The notes beneath the pieces are model-generated. The model was given only the letters and a program-made list of their open reading frames with translations. It made no database searches and had not been told where the DNA came from. A stretch of 64,000 nt of DNA, taken from NCBI GenBank assembly GCA_035447925.1, contig DAOTHY010000001.1, positions 108,300 to 172,299 on the forward strand, read 5' to 3'. This DNA is from Thermotogota bacterium (GTDB lineage: Bacteria > Thermotogota > Thermotogae > MWEM01). Position 1 is the stretch's first letter; each line of letters starts with the position of its first letter. Below are positions 6,272 through 55,443 of the stretch, piece after piece. The translations under genes were made by a program, and so were the position numbers.

Positions 6272-6283
6272 AATCACATGATC

Positions 6284-6311
6284 AACGGGTGAAATAACTT
6301 TTTCACCCGTT
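6284..6311. terminator. Bidirectional rho-independent terminator between convergent fur and DUF503 genes
   Basis: Hairpin AACGGGTGAAA-taact-TTTCACCCGTT flanked by A/T runs on both sides. Confidence 0.6.
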
Positions 6312-6598
6312 TAAATGCTTTCCATTTGTTTTTTTTCCACAAACCCTTCACTGATTACTTCGATCTCCTCGATGTATTTTGATGCAATCGATTGTAGATA
6401 GTCATTTTTGCTGGCTAAAATACCGATAGTCAGCCCAATGTAATCAAGTGAATCTTGATGATGACTTTCGGCAACACATGTGTTGTTTGCGCTAATGATA
6501 AAGGTTTTAATCCGGTTTATGATGGATCTTTTTTCTTTAAGTGAAAAAACACCACTGATTTTAACTGTTAGTGTTAATTTAGCTAGTCTAAACATCAT
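6311..6598 (-). CDS. DUF503 (YlxP-like) family protein
   Basis: 95 aa. The size and the SLKEKR motif near the N-terminus are typical of DUF503 proteins. Confidence 0.55.
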   Translation of the reverse strand: MMFRLAKLTLTVKISGVFSLKEKRSIINRIKTFIISANNTCVAESHHQDSLDYIGLTIGILASKNDYLQSIASKYIEEIEVISEGFVEKKQMESI

Positions 6599-7381: not shown

Positions 7382-7421
7382 TCCTTTCCTTCATTTAAAT
7401 CAATTGATCTGTCTATGATAA

Positions 7422-9929
7422 TCAAATTGATCCCAAAAGGGTGTTTTGAATTCCGATCTTTGGAATAATTTGATCGCCGATAACCAAATCGATGCTAAGC
7501 CTAAAATCCAGCCAGTATTGGATTCCGACATCATACCAAATTCCAATAATACCGGCAAATGGCATTTGTTTCGAAAGATCGATGTTTAGTCCGAAATGTG
7601 CAATTGGTGATGATATCTTGAATTTTCCCTCAGATGTTCCTACACTTGAAATAAAGTTCATAGGATACCAGGCTTCAGCTTGTAATGATGTTTTCGAATA
7701 GGCTGTTCTTTGACTGATCATACCGATCATTGAAGCTGGTAAAGGTAGTCCAATCCCGGTTTGAGAGAAAAATCCCGACGTGCCAAGCTGTATGACTTGC
7801 AAGAATTGTGGTACAGAAATGGGGTTGTCTGGGTAAACGATTGGTTGATAAGCCTGATGCAGGTAGACATCTGTAATCATTTTCCAGGATAAATCATCTG
7901 AAGTGTGATTGATTCCCATATTAATTGCTGTTTCGACATAGGCATTTCTTTGATCATTTCGTAACATGAATGGAAAATGAAAAGCTGCTTTGAGTTCTTC
8001 GTATGATTGATTTCCATTCCAAGTTAATTGAAAATCCGGAAACCCTCGGTGTATGATTGAATAATCCCAAGTGTATATCTCCCCTAACGAACCTAAATAA
8101 CCATACCAAATCCATTCTTTTAAGTCATCCCAACCGGCAAAACCTGTAACGCCTATTAAGTGATTATTCAAGAGAAATAATGCGGGAATGCCAAAACGTG
8201 GTATTGGGAAAGGTGTGTACTCTGTTTTCCATTCTTTGAGTACATTATCAACTGCAAGGTTTTCCTTTAAAACCAATTCAGAATAACTGATTTTATTTGT
8301 CTGGATAGTTTTTTCGACGTTAGCTGTGTGAATTAGTCGATTAAAATCAAAGCCTTTACCTGAATAAGATCGGAAATAAAATTGCCCTTCAAAAAATACT
8401 GGTTTAAAGGCACCAAAATGAGAATCTGTCAGCTTTTTTTGGGTTGATTGAGTTTCATTAAAGTGATAAATGTCATACTGGCCATCTTGATCACAGGCGT
8501 AGAGGATTCCCTCAGAACAAAGAAAAACATCTATTTCATTAGCCTGTGTCTGGAATAATACGTCCAATTGATTGCTTTGGACATCTAATTCGTAAATATC
8601 AGCATTTTTGTTATAAGTAATAGACATAATCAATCGTTGATCATAACAGCTGATATTGTTGATATAAAAATCAGGGCTGGGGGAAAGGAAATAAGAAATT
8701 TCATGAGTAAAAATATTATACGAAGCCAAACCCGTTCCCCCTTTTTCTAAAAAGGTGAAAAACAAAGTTTCATCATCCATCCACTCGCAGGAAAGTGGTC
8801 TGTGAATATCATCAACTTTGTTGAATGGGCCGGGGAAATGACCGATATAGAGTCCAAAATCATAATCTTCTAATCCATTTGCATTGGCGTATATCAAAGC
8901 ACATTGATCTGAAGGAGAAACTGAAAAAGCAGTAGGTATGGGAAGATGAATAGAGTTTTTCTCCAGTTTGTTTAAACGAATTAATGTAGTCTGTTGTCCA
9001 CCCATTTGAGAGAAATAGTAAAGAGAATTATCAGAAACTGAACTGATACCGGAGTAATAACCGGAATTTGTCATATTTTCAGCTGTAACGGTTTCAGAAG
9101 ACTTTTGCAAAGCAGTTTTTTCTTGAAGCCAAATATGCCAATCCGAGAGAAATAGGGAGAAAGACTTATCACTTATCTGTTCGATCATATTTATTAGATT
9201 GAAGCGATAAGTACTGCCGTATTCATTGATAAACTTCAAAAGCACTTGTGTACCGTACGTTTCTTCTATATATTGTATCAAATAAGCACCGTAGAGATAA
9301 TTGAATCCAGTGGGAGAAAACTCATAAGAGGTCATTCCTCCTGCAAGGCTAAGACCTCTAAAACCGTTATCCAATATTTCAGCTTTAAGATAGGAAAGAT
9401 AACGAGAATCGTTAAGTCTTCCTTCAGGGAATAGCAGAGATTCTGAAAAAATAGACACCCCTTCGTGTAAATAGGATGGAGTAAAAGCGGTATCAAACAG
9501 AATGGATACCGGATGTCCGAAAAGGCTTAATATGTCCTTTGTCCAATCGGATTTGTTGGCAACGAGAATATGAGTTAATTCATGGGAAAAAACAAAAGGT
9601 ACCCACCAAGGATAAGTATTGTTATAATAATCCGATGAATTTCTGTTGATATAGATGATAATGACATTTGAAAAGATATCTGCATAGGCGTTAGAAAAAT
9701 CAACCGTGTCTAAAAGATACACTTTTAATCTTTTTTTTAATGTAATGCCGTAAAATTCGGAAAGCTCTTGATATATTTCATTGCCTTCCTGTACAAGTTG
9801 AACGGCAACTTCCTGATACTGTTGCTGGTAAAGAACATCAAAGTATTTAGTTGGAAAAACAGAAAAAGACTGTGAAAAAGTAAGTTGAACAGCGATCAGA
9901 AACAGTAATAATGATAACCATCTTTTCAT
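7422..9929 (-). CDS. Exported multi-domain protein: signal peptide, HExxH (HELTH) metallopeptidase-like region, beta-propeller-like repeats, C-terminal amphipathic beta-barrel-like segment
   Basis: 835 aa. N-terminal signal peptide (MKRWLSLLLFLIAVQLTFSQ) and HELTHILV zincin-like motif. The middle region is rich in beta-strand repeats. The C-terminal ~200 aa shows an alternating hydrophobic pattern. Confidence 0.5.
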   Translation of the reverse strand: MKRWLSLLLFLIAVQLTFSQSFSVFPTKYFDVLYQQQYQEVAVQLVQEGNEIYQELSEFYGITLKKRLKVYLLDTVDFSNAYADIFSNVIIIYINRNSSDYYNNTYPWWVPFVFSHELTHILVANKSDWTKDILSLFGHPVSILFDTAFTPSYLHEGVSIFSESLLFPEGRLNDSRYLSYLKAEILDNGFRGLSLAGGMTSYEFSPTGFNYLYGAYLIQYIEETYGTQVLLKFINEYGSTYRFNLINMIEQISDKSFSLFLSDWHIWLQEKTALQKSSETVTAENMTNSGYYSGISSVSDNSLYYFSQMGGQQTTLIRLNKLEKNSIHLPIPTAFSVSPSDQCALIYANANGLEDYDFGLYIGHFPGPFNKVDDIHRPLSCEWMDDETLFFTFLEKGGTGLASYNIFTHEISYFLSPSPDFYINNISCYDQRLIMSITYNKNADIYELDVQSNQLDVLFQTQANEIDVFLCSEGILYACDQDGQYDIYHFNETQSTQKKLTDSHFGAFKPVFFEGQFYFRSYSGKGFDFNRLIHTANVEKTIQTNKISYSELVLKENLAVDNVLKEWKTEYTPFPIPRFGIPALFLLNNHLIGVTGFAGWDDLKEWIWYGYLGSLGEIYTWDYSIIHRGFPDFQLTWNGNQSYEELKAAFHFPFMLRNDQRNAYVETAINMGINHTSDDLSWKMITDVYLHQAYQPIVYPDNPISVPQFLQVIQLGTSGFFSQTGIGLPLPASMIGMISQRTAYSKTSLQAEAWYPMNFISSVGTSEGKFKISSPIAHFGLNIDLSKQMPFAGIIGIWYDVGIQYWLDFRLSIDLVIGDQIIPKIGIQNTLLGSI

Positions 9930-10005
9930 AAATTAGCCCCCTCAGTGATACTTTGCATTTTGACAAATATGATATATAATAAAAAAAACAAAGGGGAGGT
10001 AAAAA

Positions 10006-11157
10006 GTGGATATATACGAAAAGGCTCTTGAACGCCACAAAGAGTGGAAAGGTAAGATCTCAACTCATGTGAAATCCATCGTTCAAAACAAGGAAGATCT
10101 TAGTTTGGCTTACACCCCCGGGGTTGCAGCTCCGTGCAAAGAAATTGTAAATAATCCTGAAGCCCTTTATGATTATACAATAAAAGGCAATACAATTGCC
10201 ATAGTAAGTGATGGGTCAGCAGTGCTGGGATTGGGAAACATTGGCCCTAATGCGGCATTGCCGGTAATGGAAGGAAAAGCAGTTTTGTTCAAAGAATTTG
10301 CCGACTTAAATGCGTTTCCCATATGCTTAAATACTCAAGATTCAGAAGAGATCATTCGAACGGTTATCAACATTGCTCCCGTTTTTGGCGGGATTAACTT
10401 GGAAGATATTTCAGCCCCAAGATGTTTTTACATTGAAAAAAGACTAAAAGAAGCTCTGAACATTCCTGTGTTTCACGATGATCAACACGGAACTGCCATC
10501 GTGGTTCTTGCCGGGATCATTAACGCACTTAAATTGGTGAATAAGCACATCAATGACTGTAAAGTGGTTATCAATGGAGCGGGTGCTGCCGGAATTGCCA
10601 TTGCAAAACTGCTGATTGGTTATGGATTTGAAAGACTTGTATTATGTGATAAAAAAGGTGCTATTTATGATGGGGCACAATGGTTAAACGAAGAACAAGC
10701 TTCAATGGCTCTTCAAACAAACCCGCAAAAAGAAACGGGTGATTTGAGAAATGTAATCGTCCAATCAGACATTTTCATTGGAGTGTCTGCTCCAAATATT
10801 GTAGACGAGAAGATGATTAAGAGTATGAACTCCGATGCTGTTGTTTTTGCAATGGCCAATCCTGTTCCAGAAATTTTACCTGAAAAAGCAAAGGCTGCCG
10901 GTGCGAGAATTGTAGGCACCGGTAGATCAGACTATCCCAATCAGGTCAACAATGTACTAGCTTTCCCGGGAGTGATGAAGGCTGCAGTTAAGTGGAGAAA
11001 ACAGATAACCGATGAAGTTAAAATGGAAGCAGCCGAGGCATTAGCGGCTTTTATAAAACCATGCGAGTTATCGGATGATAAAATATTGCCTTATCCATTT
11101 GAGAAAGGGATTGCCGATCACATTGCAGAAGCAGTTGAGAGAATATTTCATGATTGA
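10006..11157 (+). CDS. maeA: NAD(P)-dependent malic enzyme (short form)
   Basis: 383 aa. It has the malic enzyme N-terminal LAYTPGVA and the NAD-binding [13 protein letters not shown], and matches the small prokaryotic malic enzyme family. Confidence 0.85.
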
Positions 11158-11175
11158 GTACAACTATCGGAGGGG

Positions 11176-12102
11176 ATGATGAGCAAAGTATTATTATTGG
11201 GAGAAGCTCTTATTGATTTTCTTTCAGAGGACTATTCAGAAACCTTATCAGAAGTAGAGGGTTTTGTCAGGCATGCGGGTGGTTCACCGGCAAATATCAC
11301 GGCAAATCTTCTAAATCTTGGAGAAGAAGCCATATTGATCACCAGAATAGGCAATGATCCATTTGGTGATTATTTGAAAAGCTCATTTAAAGAGAAAGGC
11401 ATAGATACATCTTATGTCCAAGTGGATATGCAAAGAAATACTTCTTTGGTGTTTGTTGCAAAATCAAAAGGCAACCCGAAGTTTTTACCATTGAGATCTG
11501 CAGATTATTATATTGAGAAACCAAAAACAATCAAAAATTTGCTTAATAATGTTCAATATTTTCATATCAGTACTTGGAGTATTTCACATCATCCTGCTCG
11601 ACAAACGGTGTTCAGCATTTTGGAAGATATTGAGAATTTTAACATTCGATTATGTTTTGACCCTAATTATCGGAAGATATTATGGCAAGAAAATGATGAT
11701 CCACTTGTGACTATATCAGAGGTTTTAAGAAAAACCTATCTTTGTAAACCATCAGATGATGATGCCTTTCATCTTTTTGGTAGAATGGAACATGAGGCGT
11801 ATATCCGTGAGTTTCATAGTTTGGGTGCAAAGAATGTTATTCTAACTTTGGGAAAAGAAGGGGCGTTAGTATCCAACGGTGAAAAAATCGTACATCAACC
11901 TTCTGTTAGTACAACGGTTGTGGATACAACCGGTGCTGGTGATGGCTTTTGGTCAGGTGTTTACAGCGGTTTACTTAATCATCAGGATATTTTTACTGCC
12001 GCTCAGTGGGGAAGTGCTGTTGCAGCTTTCCGTTTGAAAACCATTGGTTCAGATCTGCCTCTGCCAACGATGCAAACGATCCGAGCTGAGTTCTTGATTT
12101 AA
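11176..12102 (+). CDS. PfkB-family carbohydrate kinase, probable fructokinase
   Basis: N-terminal GEALIDF and GGSPANI motifs with the C-terminal anion-hole DTTGAGDGF. It is adjacent to the sucrose-phosphate synthase gene. Confidence 0.8.
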   Translation: MMSKVLLLGEALIDFLSEDYSETLSEVEGFVRHAGGSPANITANLLNLGEEAILITRIGNDPFGDYLKSSFKEKGIDTSYVQVDMQRNTSLVFVAKSKGNPKFLPLRSADYYIEKPKTIKNLLNNVQYFHISTWSISHHPARQTVFSILEDIENFNIRLCFDPNYRKILWQENDDPLVTISEVLRKTYLCKPSDDDAFHLFGRMEHEAYIREFHSLGAKNVILTLGKEGALVSNGEKIVHQPSVSTTVVDTTGAGDGFWSGVYSGLLNHQDIFTAAQWGSAVAAFRLKTIGSDLPLPTMQTIRAEFLI

Positions 12103-12173
12103 GAGTAATTAGAACAATATTTAATCCAACTAATCTACAAGATTATCTTTTGCGTCTTAAAAGGAGTGAACGA

Positions 12174-13585: not shown

Positions 13586-13939
13586 TGGTGGAGGCGGGGG
13601 GAATCGAACCCCCGTCCGAAAACAGCGCATAAAAGGCATCTACGTGCGTAGCTCTTGTTTGAATTTCAGATTAATATGGTACAAAAGCAAACCACATCAA
13701 TCCTATCTGCAAAGTTTTCCTCTATTTTAACGCAGAGATAAAAAAGAGTGAGCCCGAATTATCGTCGTTCTTTCATCCCGTCTCGAGCTAAACAGTCTGA
13801 AGAACGGCAGCCTTTTTAGGCTGCTAATGCAAATTCTGTTTCGTCAATTAATTTGATTGTTCACCCGTTTAACGAGTCTGATGAAAACTCGGCACGCTTC
13901 CTTATATTTGTCAGCTTCCGTCGAACCCTGATCGCCCCC
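13586..13939 (-). ncRNA. ssrA: tmRNA (ssrA), about 354 nt
   Basis: On the minus strand the 5' end is GGGGGCGAUCAGGGUUCGACGGAAGCUGAC and the 3' end is GGACGGGGGUUCGAUUCCCCCCGCCUCCACCA. This gives a tRNA-Ala-like acceptor stem with a G3:U wobble, a T-arm and a terminal CCA. The internal tag ORF ends ...DETEFALAA-TAA, carrying the canonical ALAA degradation tag. Confidence 0.9.
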
Positions 13940-44775: not shown

Positions 44776-45555
44776 TTATGTGTTGTTTATTGTCTTTCGT
44801 ACTGCATCCAGATATGCTTTCATAGCTATGAAATCACGTTTTTCAATGATTTCGGTTAGAGTATTTAATTGAGAATGGATCAGCTTGATTTGTTTAGTGG
44901 TATAGGGGTTGAAAAGTATCTCTGCCAGTAAATAATCATCTTCATTCATCAAATTTTGTGCAATGTGCATATGTTTTTTAAATGTTGTGCCCGGTACAGC
45001 TTTTTCCTTTAGGCAACTACCAAATACCAAAGAAGAAATAAAGGGTGTAGCCAATGAATAAGCCATGATTTGATCATGATCTTCAAATGAATACTCATAC
45101 AGATTTAGTCTCAAAGAATTGAAAAAAGCTTTAAAAAAAGAATGACCGATTTCATCGGATTCTTTAATAATAACTGCGTTTTCTGAAGTAAGATCGTTAA
45201 TATTGGCAAATGTGGGACCAAACATGGGATGAGTAGAAACGAAACGATGGGAATGGTTCTGATAAAAAACTTTAAGTCCGTATTTTACAGATGTAATATC
45301 CGACAGAATTGTGGAATCAGGAATCAACGACATAATTTCTTCAAAGGCGATAATGGTTTTGTTTAGAGTGACGCAATTAATAACCATTTCAGGTTCAAAT
45401 TCTTTTAACTCTTTCAAAACCGAAAAACGTTTGACATGATACAAGTGTTTCATTTGTTTTGGATCCGGATCGTAAATCGCTACTTCATGGTCTTGATTTA
45501 ACTCCTCAGCAAACCATTTCCCCATTTTCCCGGCGCCTAAGATAAATATCTTCAT
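44776..45555 (-). CDS. tyrA: Prephenate dehydrogenase-like NAD(P)-binding protein
   Basis: Rossmann ILGAGKMG and the HPMFGP motif typical of prephenate/arogenate dehydrogenases. Confidence 0.6.
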   Translation of the reverse strand: MKIFILGAGKMGKWFAEELNQDHEVAIYDPDPKQMKHLYHVKRFSVLKELKEFEPEMVINCVTLNKTIIAFEEIMSLIPDSTILSDITSVKYGLKVFYQNHSHRFVSTHPMFGPTFANINDLTSENAVIIKESDEIGHSFFKAFFNSLRLNLYEYSFEDHDQIMAYSLATPFISSLVFGSCLKEKAVPGTTFKKHMHIAQNLMNEDDYLLAEILFNPYTTKQIKLIHSQLNTLTEIIEKRDFIAMKAYLDAVRKTINNT

Positions 45556-45632
45556 AGATTCCCCTCTCTTGATTAAAAAATGAAAAGCTCAGCACATTGT
45601 ATCACAACGAATCAGTAACCGGTTTATCTGTG

Positions 45633-47987
45633 TTATGGTATTTGTTTCCAAAAATGATCAAGAATGGATCTGATTTCTTTTTCATTTCTGATACTAATGG
45701 CATGAGACCAATCGGCAGGAAAAATGAACGGGTAAGGTTTTCTGATAAAGCGTTCGTCTATGAGAATAACTGCTCCCTTATCATCATGTGATCGAATCAC
45801 TCTGCCAACTGCTTGCATAACTTTGTTGGCTCCAGGAATAATATAGGCGTATTCCCAACCTTTCCCCAGTTTTTCTTGATAATAGTCTTTTATAATATCT
45901 CTGTCAAATCCAATTTGAGGCAAACCAACTCCAACAATGATGGCTCCGCTTAATCGACTGCCGATTAGATCGATTCCTTCACCAAAAATCCCGCCCATCA
46001 AGACAAAACCGACAAAAGTCTGTTCGGGGGAGTGTTTGAAAGCATCTAAAAATGCTTCTCTTTCAGATTCGCTCATGAGAGGTGTTTGCATCCTTGTTAA
46101 GATATGTGGGCATTTTTCTGTGAACAAATGGTAGATCATTTCCATGTATTTGTAGGATGGGAAAAAAACCATATAGTTACCCGTGTGTTTGGTCATCAGT
46201 TCGATATTCTTTACGATAGCAGCTGCAGAGTATATTCTCGCATGGTATTTAGTGGAAATCTTAGAATTAACCAGTAAACAAAGTCTTTGTTGATTAAACG
46301 GCGACCTAAGAATCAGAGAATAATCGTCATCTTTAGAACCAAACAACTGTTTGTAATAATCCAGAGGTGATAATGTTGCAGAAAAAAAAACGCATGAGCT
46401 TCCTTTTTCTATCATTTCTCTAATATGAAGAGAAGGATCGATACAGTAAAGGGTTAAAGTTTCTTCGGTATTATCGTAAATGGTGATATAATGATCGTCA
46501 TATCTTTCCATTGCATTATTGAAGGTGTTTAATTCGAAAAAGTAATCAGTGAGTTTTTCCTTTAACGCATCAAACCCAGGCGTCATCAGGTAAGAAGCAA
46601 TTTCTTTTAAAACTGTTTCAAGGGGTTCTTTGATATCTTCAGGCAGTTCTTTTTTTTTCCATTTTGTCTCCAAATTCTCATTGAGGAAATAATAAGCGAC
46701 CTCTGTTTCCAATTTTCTGGCACTGATGGCTATTTTTGACTCAGTATGCCTGACATCGTTTCGCAATTTGCGTAAACGATCAAGGGAGAGAGGTGCTGAA
46801 TACATTTCTCTTGATCTATCTGGAAGGTTGTGGGCTTCATCGATCAAAAAGATATAAGGTCCTTTTTCTTCAAAATATCGTCTCAGATAAGCCCGTGGAT
46901 CGAATAAATAATTATAATCGCAAATAATGCAATCCGAAAACTCTGACAAATCCAATGAAAGCTCATAAGGGCAAATTGAAAATCGCTTTGCATGCTCTTG
47001 TATCATTCTGCGGCTGTAATGTCCTTCTTCTTTTATTATTTCAAGTAAAGCATCGTTAATCCTGTTATAATGGCCATTGGCATAAGGACAACTGTAAGGA
47101 TTACATTTGAATTCCTGATTGATACACATTTTTTCTTTGGCTGTGATCACGATTGATTTTAATTTTAGTCCTTTTGTTCTTAGAAGATTTAGGGTGTTTT
47201 CTACAGTCTGTCGAGTGATGGTTTTAGAAGTAAGATAAAAAAGAGGACCGGCCAAGTTTTTCTCCATGGCTTTAATTGATGGAAATAGCGTTGCCAGAGT
47301 TTTACCGGTTCCGGTAGGTGCTTGTGCAAATAATTTCTTGTTGTCCTTTATTGTATGGTATACCATAATGGAGAACCTTCTCTGACCTTCCCGGAAATGA
47401 GGGAAAGGGAATTGCAGATTCTTGATGCTGGTATTTCTCAGCTCAATCCAGTCATCTTTTAACTTTAACCATTTGGAATATAGAACACACAATTCATTGA
47501 AAAAATTCTCAAGGACTTCTTTGGAGTAAAAAAAATCAAGATGCTTCATGTCTTCCGTATCGATGTTAAAGTAAGTGATTCGCAAATGAACAGATTCCAA
47601 TTTTTCTCTGCTACAAATCATATGACCATAACACATACACTGTCTAAGGTGGTTTTGATCCAAAATAGCATCAATATCTTCCAAAGGTACTTTTGTTGTT
47701 TTTATTTCATCAACTGTTATTTCTTTCTGATGAGTGTGTATTCCATCGGCTCTTCCGAATATTGATAACAACATTTTTTGGTTTTGATAAATGCCGTTCA
47801 AATAGACTTCACTTTCATATTTTCCTGGAAAACTGTCTTCATACTGTTTTTGAATTCGCTTATGTGCTTTAGTCCCAATAGTGGCTCTTTCTCTCATATC
47901 CGGGGCATTGAAGCGATTATCTAGATTTCCCGATCTGAATAAAAATTCAATAAGTTCCCTAACCGATACCGAATGCTCTTTCAACAA
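45633..47987 (-). CDS. DinG/XPD(Rad3)-family Fe-S DNA helicase fused to N-terminal RecB/Cas4-like PD-(D/E)XK nuclease domain
   Basis: The N-terminal ~190 aa carries SVSVRELIEF (an SxSxL..Y/F-like nuclease N-motif), GRADGI (GxhD), VDEIKTTK (D/E-x-K) and a CxC..C cluster (CMCYGHMIC). The helicase has Walker A (AQAPTGTGKTLA), an XPD-type 4-Cys Fe-S insertion (C..C..C...C) and DEAHNL. The TTG start at 47987 has an AAGGAG RBS and overlaps the upstream gene stop. Confidence 0.7.
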   Translation of the reverse strand: MLKEHSVSVRELIEFLFRSGNLDNRFNAPDMRERATIGTKAHKRIQKQYEDSFPGKYESEVYLNGIYQNQKMLLSIFGRADGIHTHQKEITVDEIKTTKVPLEDIDAILDQNHLRQCMCYGHMICSREKLESVHLRITYFNIDTEDMKHLDFFYSKEVLENFFNELCVLYSKWLKLKDDWIELRNTSIKNLQFPFPHFREGQRRFSIMVYHTIKDNKKLFAQAPTGTGKTLATLFPSIKAMEKNLAGPLFYLTSKTITRQTVENTLNLLRTKGLKLKSIVITAKEKMCINQEFKCNPYSCPYANGHYNRINDALLEIIKEEGHYSRRMIQEHAKRFSICPYELSLDLSEFSDCIICDYNYLFDPRAYLRRYFEEKGPYIFLIDEAHNLPDRSREMYSAPLSLDRLRKLRNDVRHTESKIAISARKLETEVAYYFLNENLETKWKKKELPEDIKEPLETVLKEIASYLMTPGFDALKEKLTDYFFELNTFNNAMERYDDHYITIYDNTEETLTLYCIDPSLHIREMIEKGSSCVFFSATLSPLDYYKQLFGSKDDDYSLILRSPFNQQRLCLLVNSKISTKYHARIYSAAAIVKNIELMTKHTGNYMVFFPSYKYMEMIYHLFTEKCPHILTRMQTPLMSESEREAFLDAFKHSPEQTFVGFVLMGGIFGEGIDLIGSRLSGAIIVGVGLPQIGFDRDIIKDYYQEKLGKGWEYAYIIPGANKVMQAVGRVIRSHDDKGAVILIDERFIRKPYPFIFPADWSHAISIRNEKEIRSILDHFWKQIP

Positions 47988-50900
47988 TAGTTTTCTCCTT
48001 GGACGTTCTCAGAAAAAGCCTCAGAAAAATCCGTTGAATGCAAGTTGGTATTTGATGTAATCAATCGAACAGGGGAATCGTCCCCATAAATAATGAAGCC
48101 ACCCCATATCCATGAAGGGGCTTCTCCCCACTGGCTTCTCAACTGATGAATCAATTTCTGTTTTGAGGCCTTTAAAGCTTCGGATTTTTTCATCCCGGTC
48201 AGTAGGAAATTGTAAAAAAAAGACATTAGTTTTACCGTAAAAACATCCGGTACATTCCATAGGCTGACCATAACTGATGAAACACCTGAAGAAATCAAAG
48301 CTGAACAAAGCCCCATGATACCCTCTCCTGGATTTATTTGACCAAGACCGGTTTTACAAGCAGAAAGTACAACAATTTCTGTATTGAGTAAATTTACTGA
48401 TAAAATATCCGATGCCGTTAATAAGCCATCTTCATAAATTTCCGGTATAGTCTCACCTCTAAGAATATTGTTAATGCCACTTAAAGCTATACCGCAACGC
48501 GCATAGGGATGTACATCTACCCGATTTTCGAGATAAAAACCATGGGTGGCCAAATGGAGAATAGACGGGGACGTTATTTTTTTCATTTCACCATCATTTA
48601 CAGAATCTTTGCTGAATACGAACACATCATCCTTTTTTAAGCCTTGTCCAAAGAGAAGGTTTGATATTTCCTGCGCTTCAGAAGCGGTTCCAGGTAATTC
48701 TTCAAATTCTTCCAATTCTTTTATCAACAGCTGGTTCTGGTAAGAGATTTCTTTTTTAAGGTTTGGATCATTATTGATTTCAAATGAGGGGTTGGCAAAA
48801 ATATATACTTTGTTATTAAATTCTTTGACATTTTCTTTTTGATTAATCAAATCCCTTCCTGAACAAAGGTATTGAACAGCGTAGTTTTCTATGAGATAAT
48901 GACCGTTTTCGCAAATAAGTGTTTCAAAAGGAAGGTTGTTAAACTCACCATCAGGTGAAACAAATAGTTTGTTAATTCGGGAAAGATTAAGTTGCGTTTG
49001 ATTTTGAAAAAGAATCTGCCATATTTTTTGATGGAATAACTCAGGTGCTGAGCTGTTTTGAAGCACAGCCGAAGGGGATTTCTCCCCACGCATATGGCCG
49101 GTTTCACGAAATTGGCCCTTCTTGATGATCTGTTCAATTTCGCTGGCATTGTCAATAAAATAATAATGTGTTTTGTCATGATGGATATAGAACAGGATAT
49201 AGCCAGTCGTTTGATTTTGTCTCGTGGATCTTTTTTTGTCTTGACTGTAGACAACCGATTCATAAAAATCAAAAAAGTTAAATTTAAAAATATCCACAAA
49301 CAAAGCGTCTTGAGGAATCTTGCTTTGTAGCAGTTTGAGCGTTGCTCTTTTTGTTTTTGAATGTAATAGAAACGTTGATTCAGGTGACATGCGGAAAGCA
49401 CTGGCTATTCTGCTTTCAATTGTATCAGCCTTTGAGTTGAGTTCTTTTATCTTTTTTCTGTTTTCCTCAGCAGTTTCACTAAAATAACCTTTGGTTGTCC
49501 GCAGTACAATTTCTTCTTTTATCCTGATCAACGACTCAAAGAGGTCTTTTAAAAATGGGTTTGTGCCTTTTAAAATGGAGTGATAACGTTCGACTCCTGT
49601 TTCAAAAACGACCGCTTTTCTTCTTAAAATAATGCCAAAGATCTCTTGCATCATGTCGTTTATTTGAGAGTCATTCACTTTTTGTTCTTTTTGGAGTAGA
49701 TAAAAAAGACTAAGAAGTTTGTTCAATTCACCATCTATTCGTTGTAAAAAATTCCATGCATAGTCTCTGGAAAAGGATGTTGATACTTCAAGCAGTATAT
49801 CATTTTGGATATCAGTCGCTTCCTTGAGGATGTTATAAGCTGCTTCTGGTTGAGAGAAGACAATGAAACTGTGTGCGAGCATACCTAAGATCTTGGTATA
49901 CTGAATATGTCTTTTTCCGGTTAATTGTTCTTGTATTTTCAACGCCATTTCCAAGTTGTCAAAAGTGGATAAGTCATCTTGGTTGATGAGATAGATTTTT
50001 GAAAGATTGGAAAGAATTTTAATTTTAATATCAGGAATCATTTCACAGGACTGCAACGGTTTTAATATTTTCATGGCTTTAGCTGTATTCCCCAAGTTGA
50101 TTAGCAAAACAGCATAATTAATTTTGATTTTCAACAACGTAATCGGCATGTTTTTTGTATTACAGTTCAGCAATTCTTCAAAGCCTTGTTGAGCAACTTC
50201 CAATTTACCCAGATGAAGCTGTGCTGAGAGAAGGTTGTTGCAGGTGGTGATGGTTTTTGGATGATCCTTTCCGAAAATTTTTTGTGAATAATCAAATGAT
50301 TTTTGTAAATGATTTTCCGCTGCTTCGTAATTCCCGGTTTCCAAATACAACACACCCATATTATTTTCTATGGTGTCTGTTAATTCATCTGTTCCGTTTA
50401 ATTGTGAGATTTCTAGTGCCATCAGATATTTTTCGATAGATTTAGCGTATTTTCCCCAATACTGATACAAAAGTCCCGTATTCCAAAGGGTTTTGATATA
50501 GTCTTCAATGTGTCCGATAATTTCGCTTTCGAAAATCTTTAAGACTTCAGTAAAAATTTTTTCAGCTTCCGTAAATCTACCTAATTCAGTATATAAAAGC
50601 GCTAAATTGGAAGACGTTTCAATTGTATCAGGATGAGAACCGCCAAAAAGAGCTCTTCGACTATCATAAGCTTGTTTATAATAATCCATTGCAAAATCAT
50701 AATTTCCTTTATAATAATGCAATTCTCCAAGGAGGTTTTTGATAAAGGCGATAAAGTCATTATTTGGTTGAGTTCTCTCCATTTCCTGCTTTAAAATTTT
50801 TAGTACTAATGCTTCAATATGATCGAAAAATCCAAAAAGCAAGCAAGTTTGATTAATCATCAGGGTTAATTCTTTTTTTGACGAATAATTATATTGATTG

Positions 50901-51016
50901 TCTACAAGCATTTGTTCAACGATTTGTTCTGAATACTCAAGAAATTGATCAGTTTGCTGCAGTTTTGCGAAGCCTTTTATTTTTTTTTTAATGTTTTTGA
51001 GAGATGAATTTTCCAT
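47981..51016 (-). CDS. TPR-repeat CHAT-domain protein (caspase-like cysteine protease, clan CD fold)
   Basis: 1011 aa. The N-terminal two-thirds contain many TPR-like repeats (e.g. AMDYYKQAYDSR..., YEAAENHLQKSFDYSQK...). The C-terminal CHAT domain has the catalytic His (ILHLATHGFY) and Cys (VLSACKTG) at the expected spacing. Confidence 0.75.
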   Translation of the reverse strand: MENSSLKNIKKKIKGFAKLQQTDQFLEYSEQIVEQMLVDNQYNYSSKKELTLMINQTCLLFGFFDHIEALVLKILKQEMERTQPNNDFIAFIKNLLGELHYYKGNYDFAMDYYKQAYDSRRALFGGSHPDTIETSSNLALLYTELGRFTEAEKIFTEVLKIFESEIIGHIEDYIKTLWNTGLLYQYWGKYAKSIEKYLMALEISQLNGTDELTDTIENNMGVLYLETGNYEAAENHLQKSFDYSQKIFGKDHPKTITTCNNLLSAQLHLGKLEVAQQGFEELLNCNTKNMPITLLKIKINYAVLLINLGNTAKAMKILKPLQSCEMIPDIKIKILSNLSKIYLINQDDLSTFDNLEMALKIQEQLTGKRHIQYTKILGMLAHSFIVFSQPEAAYNILKEATDIQNDILLEVSTSFSRDYAWNFLQRIDGELNKLLSLFYLLQKEQKVNDSQINDMMQEIFGIILRRKAVVFETGVERYHSILKGTNPFLKDLFESLIRIKEEIVLRTTKGYFSETAEENRKKIKELNSKADTIESRIASAFRMSPESTFLLHSKTKRATLKLLQSKIPQDALFVDIFKFNFFDFYESVVYSQDKKRSTRQNQTTGYILFYIHHDKTHYYFIDNASEIEQIIKKGQFRETGHMRGEKSPSAVLQNSSAPELFHQKIWQILFQNQTQLNLSRINKLFVSPDGEFNNLPFETLICENGHYLIENYAVQYLCSGRDLINQKENVKEFNNKVYIFANPSFEINNDPNLKKEISYQNQLLIKELEEFEELPGTASEAQEISNLLFGQGLKKDDVFVFSKDSVNDGEMKKITSPSILHLATHGFYLENRVDVHPYARCGIALSGINNILRGETIPEIYEDGLLTASDILSVNLLNTEIVVLSACKTGLGQINPGEGIMGLCSALISSGVSSVMVSLWNVPDVFTVKLMSFFYNFLLTGMKKSEALKASKQKLIHQLRSQWGEAPSWIWGGFIIYGDDSPVRLITSNTNLHSTDFSEAFSENVQGENYC

Positions 51017-51036
51017 TTTTACCCCTCTCTTTCTTT

Positions 51037-51828
51037 TTAGGAGAGTTTGCTCTGCTTTTGTATAGAAAAGGGTTCAAAAGCTAGTAGGTATTTTCCTGGG
51101 TTTAACCCTTCAATTGAAACCTCAAACTGATCTTTGTTTTTTGATTCGTAAGCCGTTCGAATGATGGGTTTTCCGCTTTGAGTGGGGATTAATATGATCA
51201 CGGGTGAAGATTGCCAACCTGGTGCTTTATTGCAAATAATGTGTATGGCCTTTGTTTGAGAATGAGCCTGTATTTCTAATATCATCTTTTCTTGTAAATA
51301 GCCATTAAGTATATTTTCGCGTTTTTTCTCGAATGGTGTGTTTGTGTTTCCCCTCATAGCGAATGATTCCACTGGGTACTTGAATACAAGAGGGTTTTCC
51401 GGATTCATGGTGCTTTTTTTAAAGATTTTTGTAATATTTGATATGCCGTTATATGAAGTATCCATGACTACATCCACAGTATTGCTTATGAAAACACCCC
51501 ATTCTTTTAGCCAGTTTAAAATTCTGATTCTGATAGATTGATCTTGATATGGAAGTTCTTTCAGAATATTGATCATCATTTTTTGGCTCCGGGTAGGTTT
51601 TTCTTCTGTCCATTCCTGAAAAGAAATTGAGAAATCCAAGGCCTTTGTGAGCCTTGACAAACACAGGTCACATTCATTTAAATGCTCTTCCATTCGGATG
51701 ATTTCTTCCATCGGTAAAACTGGAATTTCCTTGCTATGATGAATAGGAGGGTAAAAAACAGACCTTTTTTGGATATATTCAGAATCAATGTATTTTTCGA
51801 TTTGTTCAATCGTCAAATGCTCTTTCAT
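51037..51828 (-). CDS. Putative anti-sigma factor, zf-HC2 type, soluble
   Basis: It carries the HLNECDLCLSRL (H-x3-C-x2-C) motif typical of zf-HC2 anti-sigma N-domains. It lies immediately downstream of the sigma factor gene and has no clear TM helix. Confidence 0.5.
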   Translation of the reverse strand: MKEHLTIEQIEKYIDSEYIQKRSVFYPPIHHSKEIPVLPMEEIIRMEEHLNECDLCLSRLTKALDFSISFQEWTEEKPTRSQKMMINILKELPYQDQSIRIRILNWLKEWGVFISNTVDVVMDTSYNGISNITKIFKKSTMNPENPLVFKYPVESFAMRGNTNTPFEKKRENILNGYLQEKMILEIQAHSQTKAIHIICNKAPGWQSSPVIILIPTQSGKPIIRTAYESKNKDQFEVSIEGLNPGKYLLAFEPFSIQKQSKLS

Positions 51829-51895
51829 AATAACACCTCACTATTCTTGTCGATCACATGATTATACTTTGCTTCTTATGATCATGTCGCATGAC

Positions 51896-53002
51896 TTAAC
51901 TTTCCAGTACTTTTTTTCTCAGCCTTTTAAGAACTCGATGATTCCAGTCTCTTATATTTTTTAAAGGATCCTTTCCAAAAAAAACGGATAATGACAAGTC
52001 CGCTAATGGATCATCAAGATAATCTTGTAGATAGCTTCTTGATTGATGATCTTTGGTTGGGATTACATCCTTAAGGATTAACATCAACTGATTTTCAAGG
52101 GGTTTGAAGATCTCCTCTAACTCTTCAATATCATGAAAAGAACTCTTTGAAAAAGATGTTTTCATCTCTTGAAAGAGCCTTGATAAAGGCAAATCGGATA
52201 ATGCTGTGATGTCGGTTCTCTCATCCGTTATCTTTGTTAATAAGACGACCAACACTTGCCAAGGATAACCTCCTACCGCAACCATTTGTTCCAGGAAATG
52301 TCTTTCTTGGGTTGTTTTTTCTTGTATTTGATCTGGTGAAGGGTCTTTTGAGATCGCCCAAAAAATTGGAGTAGTATCCTGCTCGTTTTGTTCGTTAAAA
52401 TCTGAAACAAGTGTTTCAGGAATTGTGGTTTCATCTTTAACCAAATGATCTGCGATGGAAATCAGATAACTAAATAGTGTGCCTTTGTATGGATTAAAAT
52501 TCGTAGCGTATCGTTCAAAGCGTTGAAAAGTTTCCAACATCAGATCAGTACATCTATTATTGAAATACTCGGTTCCCTTTATCCCTAAAAGATTTTTACT
52601 AATGTATGATTTGATTGGTAAGCTGTATTCTCGATACAATTCATTCATTCCAGATGCTTTTCGTTTTGTTATCAGTTTTAAAAGTAATAAATCTTGGCAG
52701 ATTCTGAACATCCACATCCGATAGAGTTCCATCTGATTATCAATATGTTCTTCATACACAAAGCTATTAATTCTGGTCCATGATATTTCTCGTGTTTGTT
52801 TGATGAATTGTTCTATCGTTTTTTCCATTTTCTTTTTATCGGATGATTGACCTTCAAACTCTTTTCGAAAACGAAGTTTTATTTTTGATTTAAGCCTTGT
52901 TATCAAAAAAGGTGACTGGTCAGTGCTAAATGCTATATACTCATGATAAAGTTGTTTAGTCTCATTGATCAGTTGTTTGTTTACCATGTTGTCCTCCGTC
53001 AA
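51896..53002 (-). CDS. Sigma-70 family RNA polymerase sigma factor (ECF-like, extended)
   Basis: Region 2 matches DLMLETFQRFERYATNFNPYKGTLFSYLISIADHLVKD (D-L-x-Q-E-x-F ... F-x-x-W/Y-L-x-x-I-A-x-N). The region 4.2-like C-terminus is NIRDWNHRVLKRLRKKV. A ~140-aa N-terminal extension and a long 2-4 linker are atypical. Confidence 0.55.
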   Translation of the reverse strand: MTEDNMVNKQLINETKQLYHEYIAFSTDQSPFLITRLKSKIKLRFRKEFEGQSSDKKKMEKTIEQFIKQTREISWTRINSFVYEEHIDNQMELYRMWMFRICQDLLLLKLITKRKASGMNELYREYSLPIKSYISKNLLGIKGTEYFNNRCTDLMLETFQRFERYATNFNPYKGTLFSYLISIADHLVKDETTIPETLVSDFNEQNEQDTTPIFWAISKDPSPDQIQEKTTQERHFLEQMVAVGGYPWQVLVVLLTKITDERTDITALSDLPLSRLFQEMKTSFSKSSFHDIEELEEIFKPLENQLMLILKDVIPTKDHQSRSYLQDYLDDPLADLSLSVFFGKDPLKNIRDWNHRVLKRLRKKVLES

Positions 53003-53025
53003 TTCTCTTTGTGATCACGGCCTTA

Positions 53026-53772
53026 CTATTTTAGCATATCATCTGATTCATTGATTTCTGGTTGAGAAAACAGATTGTAAATATCGTTTTCATTTAATTC
53101 TTTATATTCTCCTGGTTTCAAAGATGGATCTAATCGAAGAGATCCAATGGCTATTCGATCTAATTCAATGACTTCAGAATGGACCGTTTCAAACATCTTT
53201 TTAACTTGATGGAATCTTCCCTCCGTAATTCCAAGACAAATGGTAAATTGATCTGAGTTTACATCACAAATCTTAAAATAAGTGACAGGTTTAGTCTGAA
53301 AGTCTTTAGTGATTTGAATGCCTTCGAAAAAGAAGTGTGTATCCTCGGGATTAAAATGTATGACAACGGCTTTGTATAATTTTTGGACTTTTTTTGAAGG
53401 CGAAATAATTGAATGTACCAAATCTCCCTGAGTGCTTAATATAAGTAACCCCGTTGTATCAACATCTAATCTTCCTGCAATGGCATAAGTCGGGTGAGGT
53501 TTTTTAATCAGTTCAATAACCGATGGATAACCTGACTCACTTTCGTTAGATGAAACAAATCCCTTTGGCTTATTCATCATAATCGTACTGATTGGTTTTA
53601 TCGTAATAGGTTGACCTTTAAGAGATATGTTTGTTTCAAAATCAACTATTGTGGAAGGTTCTAAACAGATTCTACCGTTCAAGGAAATCAATCCGCTTTT
53701 AATCCATTTTTTCACTTCACTTCTTGACCCATAGCCTGTATTTGAAAGATAACGATCAAGTCTCATTGCCAA
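53026..53772 (-). CDS. rsuA: 16S rRNA pseudouridine synthase (RsuA family)
   Basis: S4 domain (MRLDRYLSNTGYGSRSEVKKWI) and catalytic Asp motif (GRLDVDTTGLLIL). Confidence 0.8.
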   Translation of the reverse strand: MAMRLDRYLSNTGYGSRSEVKKWIKSGLISLNGRICLEPSTIVDFETNISLKGQPITIKPISTIMMNKPKGFVSSNESESGYPSVIELIKKPHPTYAIAGRLDVDTTGLLILSTQGDLVHSIISPSKKVQKLYKAVVIHFNPEDTHFFFEGIQITKDFQTKPVTYFKICDVNSDQFTICLGITEGRFHQVKKMFETVHSEVIELDRIAIGSLRLDPSLKPGEYKELNENDIYNLFSQPEINESDDMLK

Positions 53773-54662
53773 TTTTTACTGCCTCTTGCAAAATAGATTT
53801 CAGAACAAATTAATCTCAATCTTTCCAACACAAAAGCTTCATCGGAATGAATCAGATAACCTGTGTTGAAATGAGTCAAATTGATCAATCTCGGATCTTT
53901 GAAGAATACAACTGCCTGATCCAGTATGGGAGCTGCTAACGGCCTGTAAAAAACTTGAAAAGACTCCATCGAAAATCTCTTTTTGAGTGGGGTGATTCCT
54001 GCTAAAATGATTTCCTGCCTTAGGTCTTTTTCATTAATAACCTTTTGAGACCATTGCCAATCCATGTGAGTCAGTAATGATGGATAATAAAGTACTTCTC
54101 CCGAATAATCAATCACGGCAACGGCCATATCCAGAAATCTTTGTTCCTCTGCTTGGAAATCTTCCAATAAAATTGCAGGAAAGATCTTTTTGTGTTTTAG
54201 GTTAAGAATGAGTTCGTCGTTTAAACCGTATTTAGTGCTTAACACAGGGAAAATACCCCCTGCCATCAAGCCGTTTGTAATCCATTCGATGGACTGTGAT
54301 GCTTTATATGGATCTACGGAAAAAAAAGGGGCAATCACTTCATCAAAACTCCCTTGTATGACTTGTATATTATCAGACATTACTTGACTGTAACCGATCA
54401 CACAGGCTTTGCTGTCAGAAGCTTTTGCCTTTTGAGCCATCAACAGACCAAAACTGAACAGAATATTGGGATCAGTAATGGTTCCAAGAACAAAAGGACT
54501 AATGTCGTTTAAATAATAGGGTAAAGCAGGATAATAAATACCCCAATCAGTATTTGTATGTATGATTTGCTCTTGCAGTCCCTCAACAGTGCTTTGAGCA
54601 CCAAAATTAATGGAGCAAATCAGAATAAAGATGACTGAGAATGTGATAAACCCCTTCTTCAT
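53763..54662 (-). CDS. Exported hypothetical protein
   Basis: I place the start at the internal ATG 54662 (MKKGFITFSVIFILICSINF, a signal peptide). It still overlaps the upstream Cof gene by 56 nt, so the start is uncertain. Confidence 0.4.
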   Translation of the reverse strand: MKKGFITFSVIFILICSINFGAQSTVEGLQEQIIHTNTDWGIYYPALPYYLNDISPFVLGTITDPNILFSFGLLMAQKAKASDSKACVIGYSQVMSDNIQVIQGSFDEVIAPFFSVDPYKASQSIEWITNGLMAGGIFPVLSTKYGLNDELILNLKHKKIFPAILLEDFQAEEQRFLDMAVAVIDYSGEVLYYPSLLTHMDWQWSQKVINEKDLRQEIILAGITPLKKRFSMESFQVFYRPLAAPILDQAVVFFKDPRLINLTHFNTGYLIHSDEAFVLERLRLICSEIYFARGSKNWQ

Positions 54663-55443
54663 TGTTGGTTTTATCAAGGCAAAGTGTCGCAGCCTTTTTA
54701 AGCTTTGGTGTAGCGTTGGCCATAGCAATAGAATAGCCCACCACTTCAAATGCGTATATGTCGTTGTCACCGTCTCCTATCATAATGGTTTGCTTTGGAT
54801 TCAGATTCAGGTACTGAAGTAATTCCAATGTTGCGATTCCTTTGTTTGTTGTGTTTGGGATGTAATCTAAATAAATTGAAAAAGACTTAAAAATATTTAC
54901 CTTCTTTGAGAATAAATTCAGACTATCTTTTTCTATTTCGTGTAGAAATTCAGGTTGACCAATAGCCAATATTTTGTCAACCTTTGTGCCGCTTTTTGTG
55001 CAGTTTGATCGGATCAATTCTGTGAGACTTTCTACAACAAGATAATTGATACCGGCGTGAGCGGCATAATGTTTGATTTGATCATTATCTTCTTCCACAA
55101 TCAACTGGTTATTGATATAGGCTTGTCTGTGACACCTCTTTGAACGAAGAAATTCAATGATTTTTGCTGCTGTTTCGTTGTCTATGAAATGGTGGAAAAT
55201 TGGTTTTAGTTCTCCGGGTATTGTGATTAAACTTCCATTGTAACTTATGATTGGGAATTGATCTGTACCGAAATATTTATTGATGATATGATGGGCAGAA
55301 TCCAGCATTCTACCTGTGCAGAAGATGATGGATATCCCTTTTCGATGAATGGTTTTTAATAAATCAATTGTTTTGATAGATATTTTTAATTCATCATCTA
55401 AGATTGTTCCGTCTATGTCTAAAACAACCGTTTTGTAATTCAA
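54607..55443 (-). CDS. Cof-type HAD-IIB phosphatase
   Basis: N-terminal VLDIDGTIL and C-terminal GDGDNDI motifs. Confidence 0.75.
   Translation of the reverse strand: MNYKTVVLDIDGTILDDELKISIKTIDLLKTIHRKGISIIFCTGRMLDSAHHIINKYFGTDQFPIISYNGSLITIPGELKPIFHHFIDNETAAKIIEFLRSKRCHRQAYINNQLIVEEDNDQIKHYAAHAGINYLVVESLTELIRSNCTKSGTKVDKILAIGQPEFLHEIEKDSLNLFSKKVNIFKSFSIYLDYIPNTTNKGIATLELLQYLNLNPKQTIMIGDGDNDIYAFEVVGYSIAMANATPKLKKAATLCLDKTNNEEGVYHILSHLYSDLLH

Follow-up and report, generated by a model that had tools for sequence, protein, structure and literature searches.

Proteolytic release of sigma factors of the extracytoplasmic function (ECF) type is a central theme of bacterial signalling, and ties between caspase-like CHAT proteases and sigma factors are a recent addition to it, found so far only in defence contexts: in the Craspase circuit and, as a proposal, in DdvA of Myxococcus xanthus. 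In the first of these, comprising Csx29, Csx30 and CASP-sigma, cleavage occurs in a flexible loop of the C-terminal domain of Csx30, whilst the N-terminal domain binds the sigma factor (PMC10028731). In the second, CHAT-mediated cleavage of the anti-sigma factor has been proposed for the DdvA/DdvS pair (PMC11506125). CalpL/T/S offers another precedent for proteolysis of an anti-sigma factor that sets an ECF factor free. Couplings between caspases and ECF factors are also described in conflict systems (PMC8195603), and group ECF54, described without an anti-sigma factor, was noted computationally to have CHAT, subtilase or carboxypeptidase genes as neighbours (PMC8999054). Here we report on a locus in a 64,000 nt stretch of a contig labelled Thermotogota (DAOTHY010000001.1, positions 108,300 to 172,299; hereafter the window), in which genes for an ECF-like sigma factor, a soluble zinc-binding anti-sigma (ZAS) factor and a protease with tetratricopeptide repeats (TPRs) and a CHAT domain stand in a row. 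By a modest balance of probability, we take these to form a three-gene cytoplasmic protease/anti-sigma/sigma switch that is chromosomal and independent of CRISPR. The DNA comes from a metagenome-assembled organism that was encountered on 21 contigs.

Gene content and conservation of the locus

Four open reading frames (ORFs) lie on the minus strand at 51896-53002, 51037-51828, 47981-51016 and 45633-47987, with spacings of 67, 20 and -7 nt, identical to those given in a preliminary description of this DNA. Their assignments, with the start of the first gene corrected as explained below, are as follows.

51896..52987, minus strand: non-canonical ECF-like sigma factor, 363 aa (the ORF reaches a TTG at 53002, which would give 368 aa)
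51037..51828, minus strand: soluble ZAS-type anti-sigma factor, 263 aa, with anti-sigma domain (ASD) fold matches and an HxxxCxxC motif
47981..51016, minus strand: cytoplasmic TPR-CHAT caspase-like protease (predicted activity), 1011 aa; Pfam CHAT 2.3e-57, TPR_12 3e-40
45633..47987, minus strand: EndoDinG, a PD-(D/E)XK endonuclease with an XPD/DinG-type Fe-S 5'-3' helicase, 784 aa

The order sigma, anti-sigma, TPR-CHAT is kept in about nine lineages whose flanks are unrelated and in which identity of the sigma-like protein falls to ~25 %, the anti-sigma and CHAT genes being 10-35 nt apart or overlapping throughout. The trio is retained in the window clade and at the homologous loci L018/L019, L020, L024, L029, L030, L033 and L034. 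Close relatives share the entire context of the window (dxs ... rsuA, the trio, EndoDinG, the prephenate dehydrogenase gene, gpsA). At L007/L018/L019, where the sigma-like proteins are 47-48 % identical to that of the window, all four genes persist and the upstream side is instead occupied by topA and a divergent lipoprotein gene. At L020 (40 % identity), the trio is followed by genes for transketolase and pyrroline-5-carboxylate (P5C) reductase. Among the remote loci at ~25 % identity, L024 reads divergent lipoprotein gene, sigma, 245-aa ZAS protein, TPR-CHAT and peptidase M20, and L029 reads sigma, 247-aa protein, TPR-CHAT and a 148-aa ORF. Of the other remote loci, L021 carries the sigma-like gene, a 273-aa ZAS protein gene and then the start of a TPR-protein gene at the contig end, and at L030/31/38, L033 and L034 the trio is present and EndoDinG is absent.

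The fourth gene behaves differently. EndoDinG follows the trio only in the clade of the window (L009, L018, L041, L043); at L020, L024, L029, L030, L033 and L034 its place beside the trio is taken by transketolase, peptidase M20 or other genes. The preliminary description had presented all four genes as one cassette and had asked for their co-occurrence elsewhere, which was found for the first three in about nine lineages and for the helicase in the window clade alone. Because the trio stays together across lineages and EndoDinG accompanies it only in that clade, the functional unit is the sigma factor, the anti-sigma factor and the CHAT protease, with the helicase a lineage-specific neighbour.

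Around this core, the protease can be exchanged. At L027/L028, a short-form sigma-like gene is followed by a ZAS protein gene and by a gene for a CHAT-Clp_N-AAA+ protein; in L027, the latter (9061-12117, plus strand) encodes an N-terminal CHAT domain, then Clp_N and an AAA+ ATPase. As the partner there is a differently built CHAT protease, the class of protease appears constant whilst the sensor domains vary. L023 encodes a sigma-like protein, a ZAS-like protein without zinc ligands and then a 605-aa Clp_N protein (6058-7875, plus strand). Together these arrangements suggest swapping of sensor or unfoldase domains while the sigma/ZAS core stays constant.

The genes surrounding the trio are housekeeping genes in every lineage but one (L032). 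In the window, Pfam identifies dxs, a HAD hydrolase gene and an rsuA-type pseudouridine synthase gene on the upstream flank, and a prephenate dehydrogenase gene and gpsA on the downstream flank. Searches of plasmids gave no sigma or anti-sigma homologue, and searches of phages no sigma homologue.

An ECF-type sigma-2 domain in the 363-aa protein

The most likely start of the sigma-like gene is the ATG at 52987, for a product of 363 aa; a GGAGGA Shine-Dalgarno sequence is found there and every homologue starts at this position. The protein consists of a helical N-terminal extension of ~100 aa, a sigma-2 domain (~105-195), an acidic disordered linker (196-222) and a helical, family-specific C-terminal domain (223-363) with GYPWQ and KNI(R/S)DWNxR signatures and a basic last helix. 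Standard searches say little about it. The 368-aa form had no Pfam match below E=0.01, the sole Pfam trace being Sigma70_r2 at E=0.083; NCBIfam ECF models were matched at 2e-4 to 5e-2, far below the model cut-offs; and PADLOC returned no match. Since these searches were insignificant for the sigma-like and anti-sigma proteins alike, family profiles and structure prediction were needed. The best matches of the sigma-like protein were to BldN (TIGR02952 and 6dxo_A).

An exhaustive profile search gave 133 representative relatives (clusters at 50 % identity). About 20 of these are full length, near 360 aa, and many more are 260-300 aa long, without the N-terminal extension of ~100 residues. Sigma70_r2 of Pfam is matched by 73 of 111 relatives (best 2e-18). 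A profile from 17 close orthologues was too shallow, reaching only E=0.17 against PDB sequences and E=0.16 against RpoE (hhalign), and the sigma-2 domain was resolved once this was replaced by the 111-sequence profile. The latter aligned with Escherichia coli RpoE residues 4-92 at a probability of 98 % (E=8e-14, hhalign) and, among PDB sequences, with AlgU at 5e-21 and RpoE at 4e-19; these alignments stop near RpoE residue 138, at the first helix of region 4.1. Motifs of regions 2.2-2.4 are kept (DL..ETF... and F.(S/T)(Y/W)L..IA.N), and regions 2.1-2.4 are present, as the definition of an ECF factor requires of sigma-2. The protein is therefore a genuine ECF-type sigma-2 domain joined to a family-specific C-terminal domain. 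The label of sigma factor given to it at the outset stands for sigma-2, on the evidence of the 111-relative profile; the start was moved from 53002 to 52987, and a sigma-4 domain was not found, a point that the preliminary description had not foreseen and that is taken up below.

A predicted zinc-binding anti-sigma protein and a predicted TPR-CHAT protease

The 263-aa protein begins with a helical domain in which H4 and the motif H49-x3-C53-x2-C56 are invariant in 12 orthologues, and the HxxxCxxC motif is retained in L020, L021, L024, L026, L027 and L029. ASD-fold matches were obtained to PupR, RslA and RsiW. Beyond this domain, a conserved, poorly modelled segment (124-161, with P152-x-E-x-F-x-M158-R159-G160) is followed by an Ig-like beta-sandwich at the C terminus (~165-253). 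The protein had no Pfam match below E=0.01, and PADLOC gave only a sub-threshold match to Cas3 (E=0.0084); its homologue at the L027/L028 locus is significant for Pfam zf-HC2. A zinc motif with an upstream ligand, and a helical ASD fold or a zf-HC2 match, define class I of the ZAS/zf-HC2 proteins, and all are found here. The 263-aa protein probably binds its sigma factor and holds it inactive.

Neither this protein nor the TPR-CHAT protein has a transmembrane segment or a signal peptide (maximum Kyte-Doolittle 19-residue means of 0.85 and 1.69, respectively, both internal), and on sequence grounds both are predicted to be soluble and cytoplasmic. The zinc motif, the ASD fold, the homologue significant for zf-HC2 and the lack of a transmembrane segment bear out the first assignment of the 263-aa protein as a soluble zf-HC2-type anti-sigma factor.

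The 1011-aa protein, which also matches TPR_10 in Pfam, has kinesin-light-chain-type TPRs at ~80-400, a helical middle part and a CHAT domain (PF12770) at 663-979. Its predicted catalytic dyad, H825 (in ILHLATHG) and C887 (in LSACxTG), does not vary among six orthologues whose identity goes down to 35 %, which confirms the intact His/Cys dyad reported earlier. With both the domain and the dyad in place, the protein belongs to the CHAT peptidases of clan CD. When the CHAT domain alone was compared with PDB sequences, no solved CHAT protein (Csx29, DdvA and separase among them) was matched at E≤10, and PADLOC returned no match for the full protein.

Conserved promoter-like elements

Two promoter-like elements accompany the trio.

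53028..53036, minus strand: TGCTAAAAT, a promoter-like element of extended -10 form that overlaps the rsuA-like stop codon and lies ~40 nt upstream of the sigma-like start
51861..51893, minus strand: CATGCGACA-N17-GTATAAT, a bipartite promoter-like element of ECF type between the sigma and anti-sigma genes

The first of these, with the form TGnTA(A/T)AAT, recurs at a constant position before the sigma-like gene in every lineage examined, although the genes further upstream differ, and we infer that it is a candidate housekeeping (sigma-A type) promoter of this gene. The second occupies the same position at 19 of 20 loci, with its core kept at the twentieth; the sequence CATGCGAC occurs once in the 64-kb window. 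In remote lineages (~25 % sigma identity), the core is TGCG-N19(+/-1)-GTA(A/T)(A/T)A, as at L034 (CCTGCGGAAAACCAATATCAATTCAGTAAAAC), with the same type at L033, L036, L037, L039 and L040. In the variants of L024, L021 and L026 the core is TGCG, replaced by TGCT at L029. Whilst the spacing is fixed at 19(+/-1) nt, the intervening sequence and the GC content (33-50 %) vary. At L030, where the sigma/anti-sigma spacer is 17 nt, the element instead lies ~120 nt upstream of the sigma gene.

ECF (sigma-E) promoters combine a GGAA-type -35 with a GT(A/C)AAA-type -10 element, and the bipartite element resembles these. Searched for genome-wide, a relaxed form of the pattern occurred about as often as expected from shuffled sequence, and only position, strand and fixed spacing carry weight. 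On these features, the element at 51861-51893 is a candidate cognate promoter of the sigma-like factor, which would drive the anti-sigma and CHAT genes and, in the window lineage, EndoDinG. A ZAS-type gene directly downstream of the sigma-like gene (in all cases except L032) and an ECF-type promoter-like element at the locus itself are in keeping with an ECF factor. The proposal that the four genes form a single transcription unit is supported by a consensus scan of the minus strand from 45400 to 53900, which found no terminator-like site. At L007 (11090-11115), the spacer contains a short hairpin, CCCTTTCT-TTCA-GAAAGGG, directly upstream of the TGCGACA element. This hairpin of the L007/L018 lineage, which has no conserved counterpart in the window, could limit transcription running on from the sigma gene.

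Extra, divergent copies of the bipartite element precede a lipoprotein gene (L018/L019) and a gene for a secreted FG-GAP/Por_Secre_tail protein (L023), and a further copy at L020 points off the contig end. Lipoprotein genes divergent from the sigma-like gene are found in two distant lineages, at L018 (8582-9880, minus strand), L019 (~8571-9875, minus strand) and L024 (8512-9864, minus strand). They encode proteins of 433-450 aa with a lipobox (...LLISC, the form at L018/L019, or ...LFTSC) and no Pfam match, and the proteins of L018/L019 share weak homology with that of L024 (22 % over 232 aa, E=7.5e-6). Because TGCGACA-N16-GTATAAT precedes the gene in L018/L019, the divergent lipoprotein is a candidate regulon member. 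The window contains no homologue of it.

A proposed switch and competing explanations

In the switch that we favour, the sigma-like factor would be made constitutively from its own housekeeping-type extended -10 promoter and kept inactive by the soluble anti-sigma protein, acting through its N-terminal zinc-binding (HxxxCxxC) anti-sigma domain. The TPR-CHAT protein would detect an intracellular cue through its TPR and helical regions, and the activated CHAT domain would cleave the anti-sigma protein, the most plausible sites being the conserved disordered F-A-M-R-G loop that links its two domains (a cut after R159 is predicted) or the interior of the C-terminal domain. Such cleavage would inactivate or destabilise the anti-sigma protein, and the freed sigma factor would direct RNA polymerase to TGCG-N19-GTA(A/T)(A/T)A promoters. 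An anti-sigma/CHAT operon driven by this sigma factor would give negative feedback and reset, and in some lineages sigma promoters may also stand before divergent genes for lipoproteins or secreted beta-propeller-like proteins. EndoDinG would be a DNA-repair nuclease-helicase that shares the transcript in the window clade only. Because the trio is conserved as a unit, Craspase-like logic is a reasonable model. Observed directly are the identities of the domains, the conservation of the dyad and the zinc motif, the gene order in distant lineages and the conserved promoter-like elements; from these, we infer the binding of sigma by anti-sigma, the anti-sigma protein as CHAT substrate, the cleavage site, the assignment of the promoter and the nature of the signal.

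A more far-reaching account is possible, although we hold it to be somewhat short of probable. The sigma-like proteins would form an unclassified family (at least 133 clusters at 50 % identity) that combines an ECF sigma-2 with a new, promoter-reading C-terminal domain standing where canonical sigma-4 would be; the CHAT protease would cleave the soluble ZAS factor; the sigma factor would be constitutive and the anti-sigma factor and protease sigma-dependent; and the system would control envelope lipoprotein genes.

Several points weigh against the proposed switch. A candidate sigma promoter in front of the anti-sigma/CHAT genes also fits the protease as an output of the regulon, not its activator. 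The window copy of that promoter (GCGACA-18-TATAAT) scores as a sigma-70-type (sigma-A-type) site as well. Two loci, L045 and L046, have the sigma and anti-sigma genes and no CHAT gene that could be found; as our own CHAT hidden Markov model was narrow, missing the Pfam-confirmed CHAT of L027, this absence was checked with Pfam on ORFs of ≥120 aa (in L045, the region ~2851-3760 is without a long ORF). At L032 (4445-5533), the sigma-like gene is an orphan, without anti-sigma and CHAT genes. Its neighbours are a gene of transglutaminase-like type and the HsdR and HsdM genes of a type I restriction-modification system, and its partner genes may have been displaced by insertion. Finally, sigma-4 is not recognisable. 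Neither the window protein nor any of the 111 relatives matches Sigma70_r4 or Sigma70_r4_2, sigma-4 was not significant by hhalign against RpoE, and three sub-alignments of the C-terminal domain (219-368) reached hhalign probabilities of ≤2.3 % against a sigma-4 profile of five canonical ECF factors. Foldseek alignments to full-length ECF factors do span 200-217 columns and run through the sigma-4 of the targets; these are weak (E ~0.03-0.1). ECF groups are defined by a sigma-4 criterion (PMC7826278), and because this one fails, the family falls outside ECF classification 2.0. The conserved -35-like promoter element nevertheless implies that some part of the protein reads the -35 region.

The alternative that survives best, which we regard as unlikely, is that sensing falls to the ZAS protein, which would react to oxidation of thiols or loss of zinc in the manner of RsrA, RshA and ChrR, with the CHAT protease an effector of the regulon that cleaves other cellular targets. 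The invariant HxxxCxxC motif with H4 resembles redox-sensing ZAS proteins, the conserved candidate promoter directly upstream of the anti-sigma and CHAT genes would make the protease sigma-induced, and the L045/L046 relatives do without it. Against this, many anti-sigma domains that bind zinc do not sense redox state, and ECF systems normally co-transcribe the anti-sigma gene with regulon genes. The very tight anti-sigma/CHAT order persists over about nine lineages, and the swap to another CHAT architecture at L027 suggests a dedicated partner, not a generic output.

Less likely still is that the CHAT protease acts on the sigma-like protein, either removing the extension of ~100 aa (a pro-sigma, as in BldN) or cutting the acidic linker, with the ZAS factor a separate, possibly redox- or zinc-responsive control. 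The best matches of the sigma-like protein are indeed to BldN, whose N-terminal extension is removed by proteolysis before anti-sigma control (PMC7826278). The extension is present in all TPR-CHAT-linked long forms and absent from short forms such as that of L027, which has a different CHAT architecture, but this correlation comes from few lineages. Moreover, both characterised CHAT-sigma systems have the anti-sigma side as substrate or proposed substrate, and there is a conserved disordered loop in the anti-sigma protein and none at the junction of the extension with sigma-2.

It is improbable that the 363-aa protein is a decoy or adaptor with a sigma-2 domain (compare the sigma-like domain of PhyR), titrating the ZAS factor or recruiting the protease without being a working sigma factor. 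The lack of any sigma-4 match among the relatives and the family-specific C-terminal domain would suit such a role, but the motifs of sigma-2 regions 2.2-2.4 are kept, the co-conserved bipartite promoter with its -35-like element implies that some domain reads the -35, and the Foldseek alignments, weak as they are, pass through sigma-4. Furthermore, SigI-type factors have no Pfam sigma-4 and yet are functional sigma factors (PMC7826278).

Least probable of all, and largely refuted by the comparative data, is the antiphage module of four genes suggested in the preliminary description, in which the nuclease-helicase would sense foreign or damaged DNA and relay this to the CHAT protease: the overlap of the EndoDinG start with the CHAT stop, the lack of an intervening terminator-like site, the adjacency in three sub-lineages and a helicase match to the PADLOC type IV DinG model are outweighed by the absence of EndoDinG beside the trio in L020, L024, L029, L030, L033 and L034, where other genes replace it, by its membership of a widespread, characterised family found without the trio, and by housekeeping flanks (except at L032), no plasmid or phage homologues, no CRISPR array and no PADLOC match for the sigma-like and CHAT proteins. 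At the window locus itself, the marks of a defence system are lacking: matches to defence models go no further than generic DinG homology of the helicase and the sub-threshold Cas3 match of the anti-sigma protein, the neighbours are housekeeping genes, and the plasmid and phage searches gave no homologue.

Neighbouring genes and other features of the window

The 784-aa protein aligns over nearly its full length with the Finegoldia magna FmaDinG (PDB 9kqh_A, E=2.9e-150, query 1-760 to target 1-747), the N-terminal nuclease domain included, and matches DEAD_2, Helicase_C_2, HBB and, weakly, PDDEXK_1 in Pfam. The fusion of a PD-(D/E)XK nuclease with a DinG/XPD helicase, recognised from the start, is accordingly an EndoDinG. 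FmaDinG is the first characterised member of this group of DNA-processing machines, which occur mostly in anaerobes (PMC13650095). In the window, the TTG start of EndoDinG overlaps the CHAT stop and is preceded by an AAGGAG Shine-Dalgarno sequence; transcription together with the CHAT gene, and translational coupling to it, are therefore probable in this lineage. PADLOC matched EndoDinG to DinG/Cas3/Cas4 helicase-nuclease models, including type IV DinG, which is generic DinG homology. As a core component of the module, the helicase was rejected, since the trio persists without it in distant lineages. Compared with FmaDinG (9KQH), it is an ordinary member of its family with nothing notably different, merely adjacent in the window clade, and models of the module should leave it out.

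Inside the 3' end of EndoDinG, at 45879-45907 on the minus strand, is a near-consensus sigma-70-type site, TTGACA-17-TATTAT (11/12). It is a plausible candidate for the promoter of the prephenate dehydrogenase gene further downstream, and the transcription unit would then end there. The HAD hydrolase and rsuA-like genes flank a conserved ORF (53763-54770, minus strand; 299-335 aa depending on the choice of start), without a Pfam match, whose N-terminal segment GFITFSVIFILICSINFGA is strongly hydrophobic (Kyte-Doolittle mean 2.07) and which has counterparts in L009 and L010. A tmRNA gene at 13586-13939 on the minus strand (Rfam RF00023, 183 bits; tag peptide DETEFALAA) is the sole structured RNA detected in the window, and no tRNA genes were found there. 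Taxonomic labels conflict: an identical protein is annotated as 'Bacteroidales bacterium' in one NCBI metagenome-assembled genome, whilst nine related GTDB species representatives carry the label Thermotogota or Thermotogaceae.

Comparison with described systems

The logic of the locus is known. What appears to be new is its arrangement as a split, soluble and CRISPR-independent ZAS and TPR-CHAT pair, a sigma family without a recognisable sigma-4 that stands outside the ECF classification, and a conserved wiring with two promoters. This family is invisible to the current classification, which requires a Pfam sigma-4, and the predicted cognate promoter makes the system directly testable.

With the Craspase circuit (PMC10028731), the locus shares a cytoplasmic TPR-CHAT protein beside an ECF-type sigma factor and a two-domain inhibitor, and in both cases the loop at issue lies outside the sigma-binding domain, the one in the window being the conserved disordered loop of the anti-sigma protein. 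It differs in having no Cas7-11/gRAMP, no CRISPR RNA (crRNA) and no CRISPR array; target RNA therefore cannot be the activating signal. The 64-kb window contains no tandem or CRISPR-like repeats and no array, as had been remarked at the outset, and among the four proteins PADLOC identified none of Cas7-11/gRAMP, Csx29 and Csx30. Neither of the marks of Craspase is thus found, be it Cas7-11 with an array or a protease orthologous to Csx29. In addition, the inhibitor is of ZAS type in place of Csx30, the sigma factor is without a recognisable sigma-4 and the context is one of housekeeping, not defence. The resemblance to Craspase that first drew attention to these genes is accordingly one of logic, carried by the conserved trio, and not of descent, as the CHAT domain has no detectable similarity to Csx29.

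DdvA/DdvS of M. xanthus (PMC11506125) is similar in its CHCC/HxxxCxxC anti-sigma domain, its TPR-CHAT His/Cys dyad and its ECF partner. However, DdvA unites its anti-sigma and TPR-CHAT parts in one transmembrane polypeptide, the latter part is periplasmic and without three active-site helices, and RseP-type intramembrane proteolysis is required, whereas in the window the ZAS and TPR-CHAT parts are soluble cytoplasmic proteins from separate genes, so that the locus is not of DdvA type. DdvS, for its part, is a canonical ECF factor controlling a CBASS/CRISPR island, and the window locus has no linked defence genes. The CalpL/CalpT/CalpS system is likewise tripartite and soluble, with a protease, an anti-sigma factor and a sigma factor of ECF-like type; its protease is a Lon-SAVED protein activated by cA4, not a CHAT protein, and it is associated with type III CRISPR. 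RsrA/SigR, RshA/SigH and ChrR/RpoE (PMC8999054) match the other half of the locus, a soluble HxxxCxxC anti-sigma factor adjoining an ECF-type sigma-2.

On the more far-reaching account given above, the trio would stand beside the Craspase/DdvA circuit in several bacterial lineages as a counterpart that works on its own and without CRISPR. Its separate soluble proteins, its housekeeping chromosomal setting and its conservation over distant lineages suggest that the versions linked to CRISPR may be particular forms of a wider design in which caspase-like proteases signal to sigma factors.

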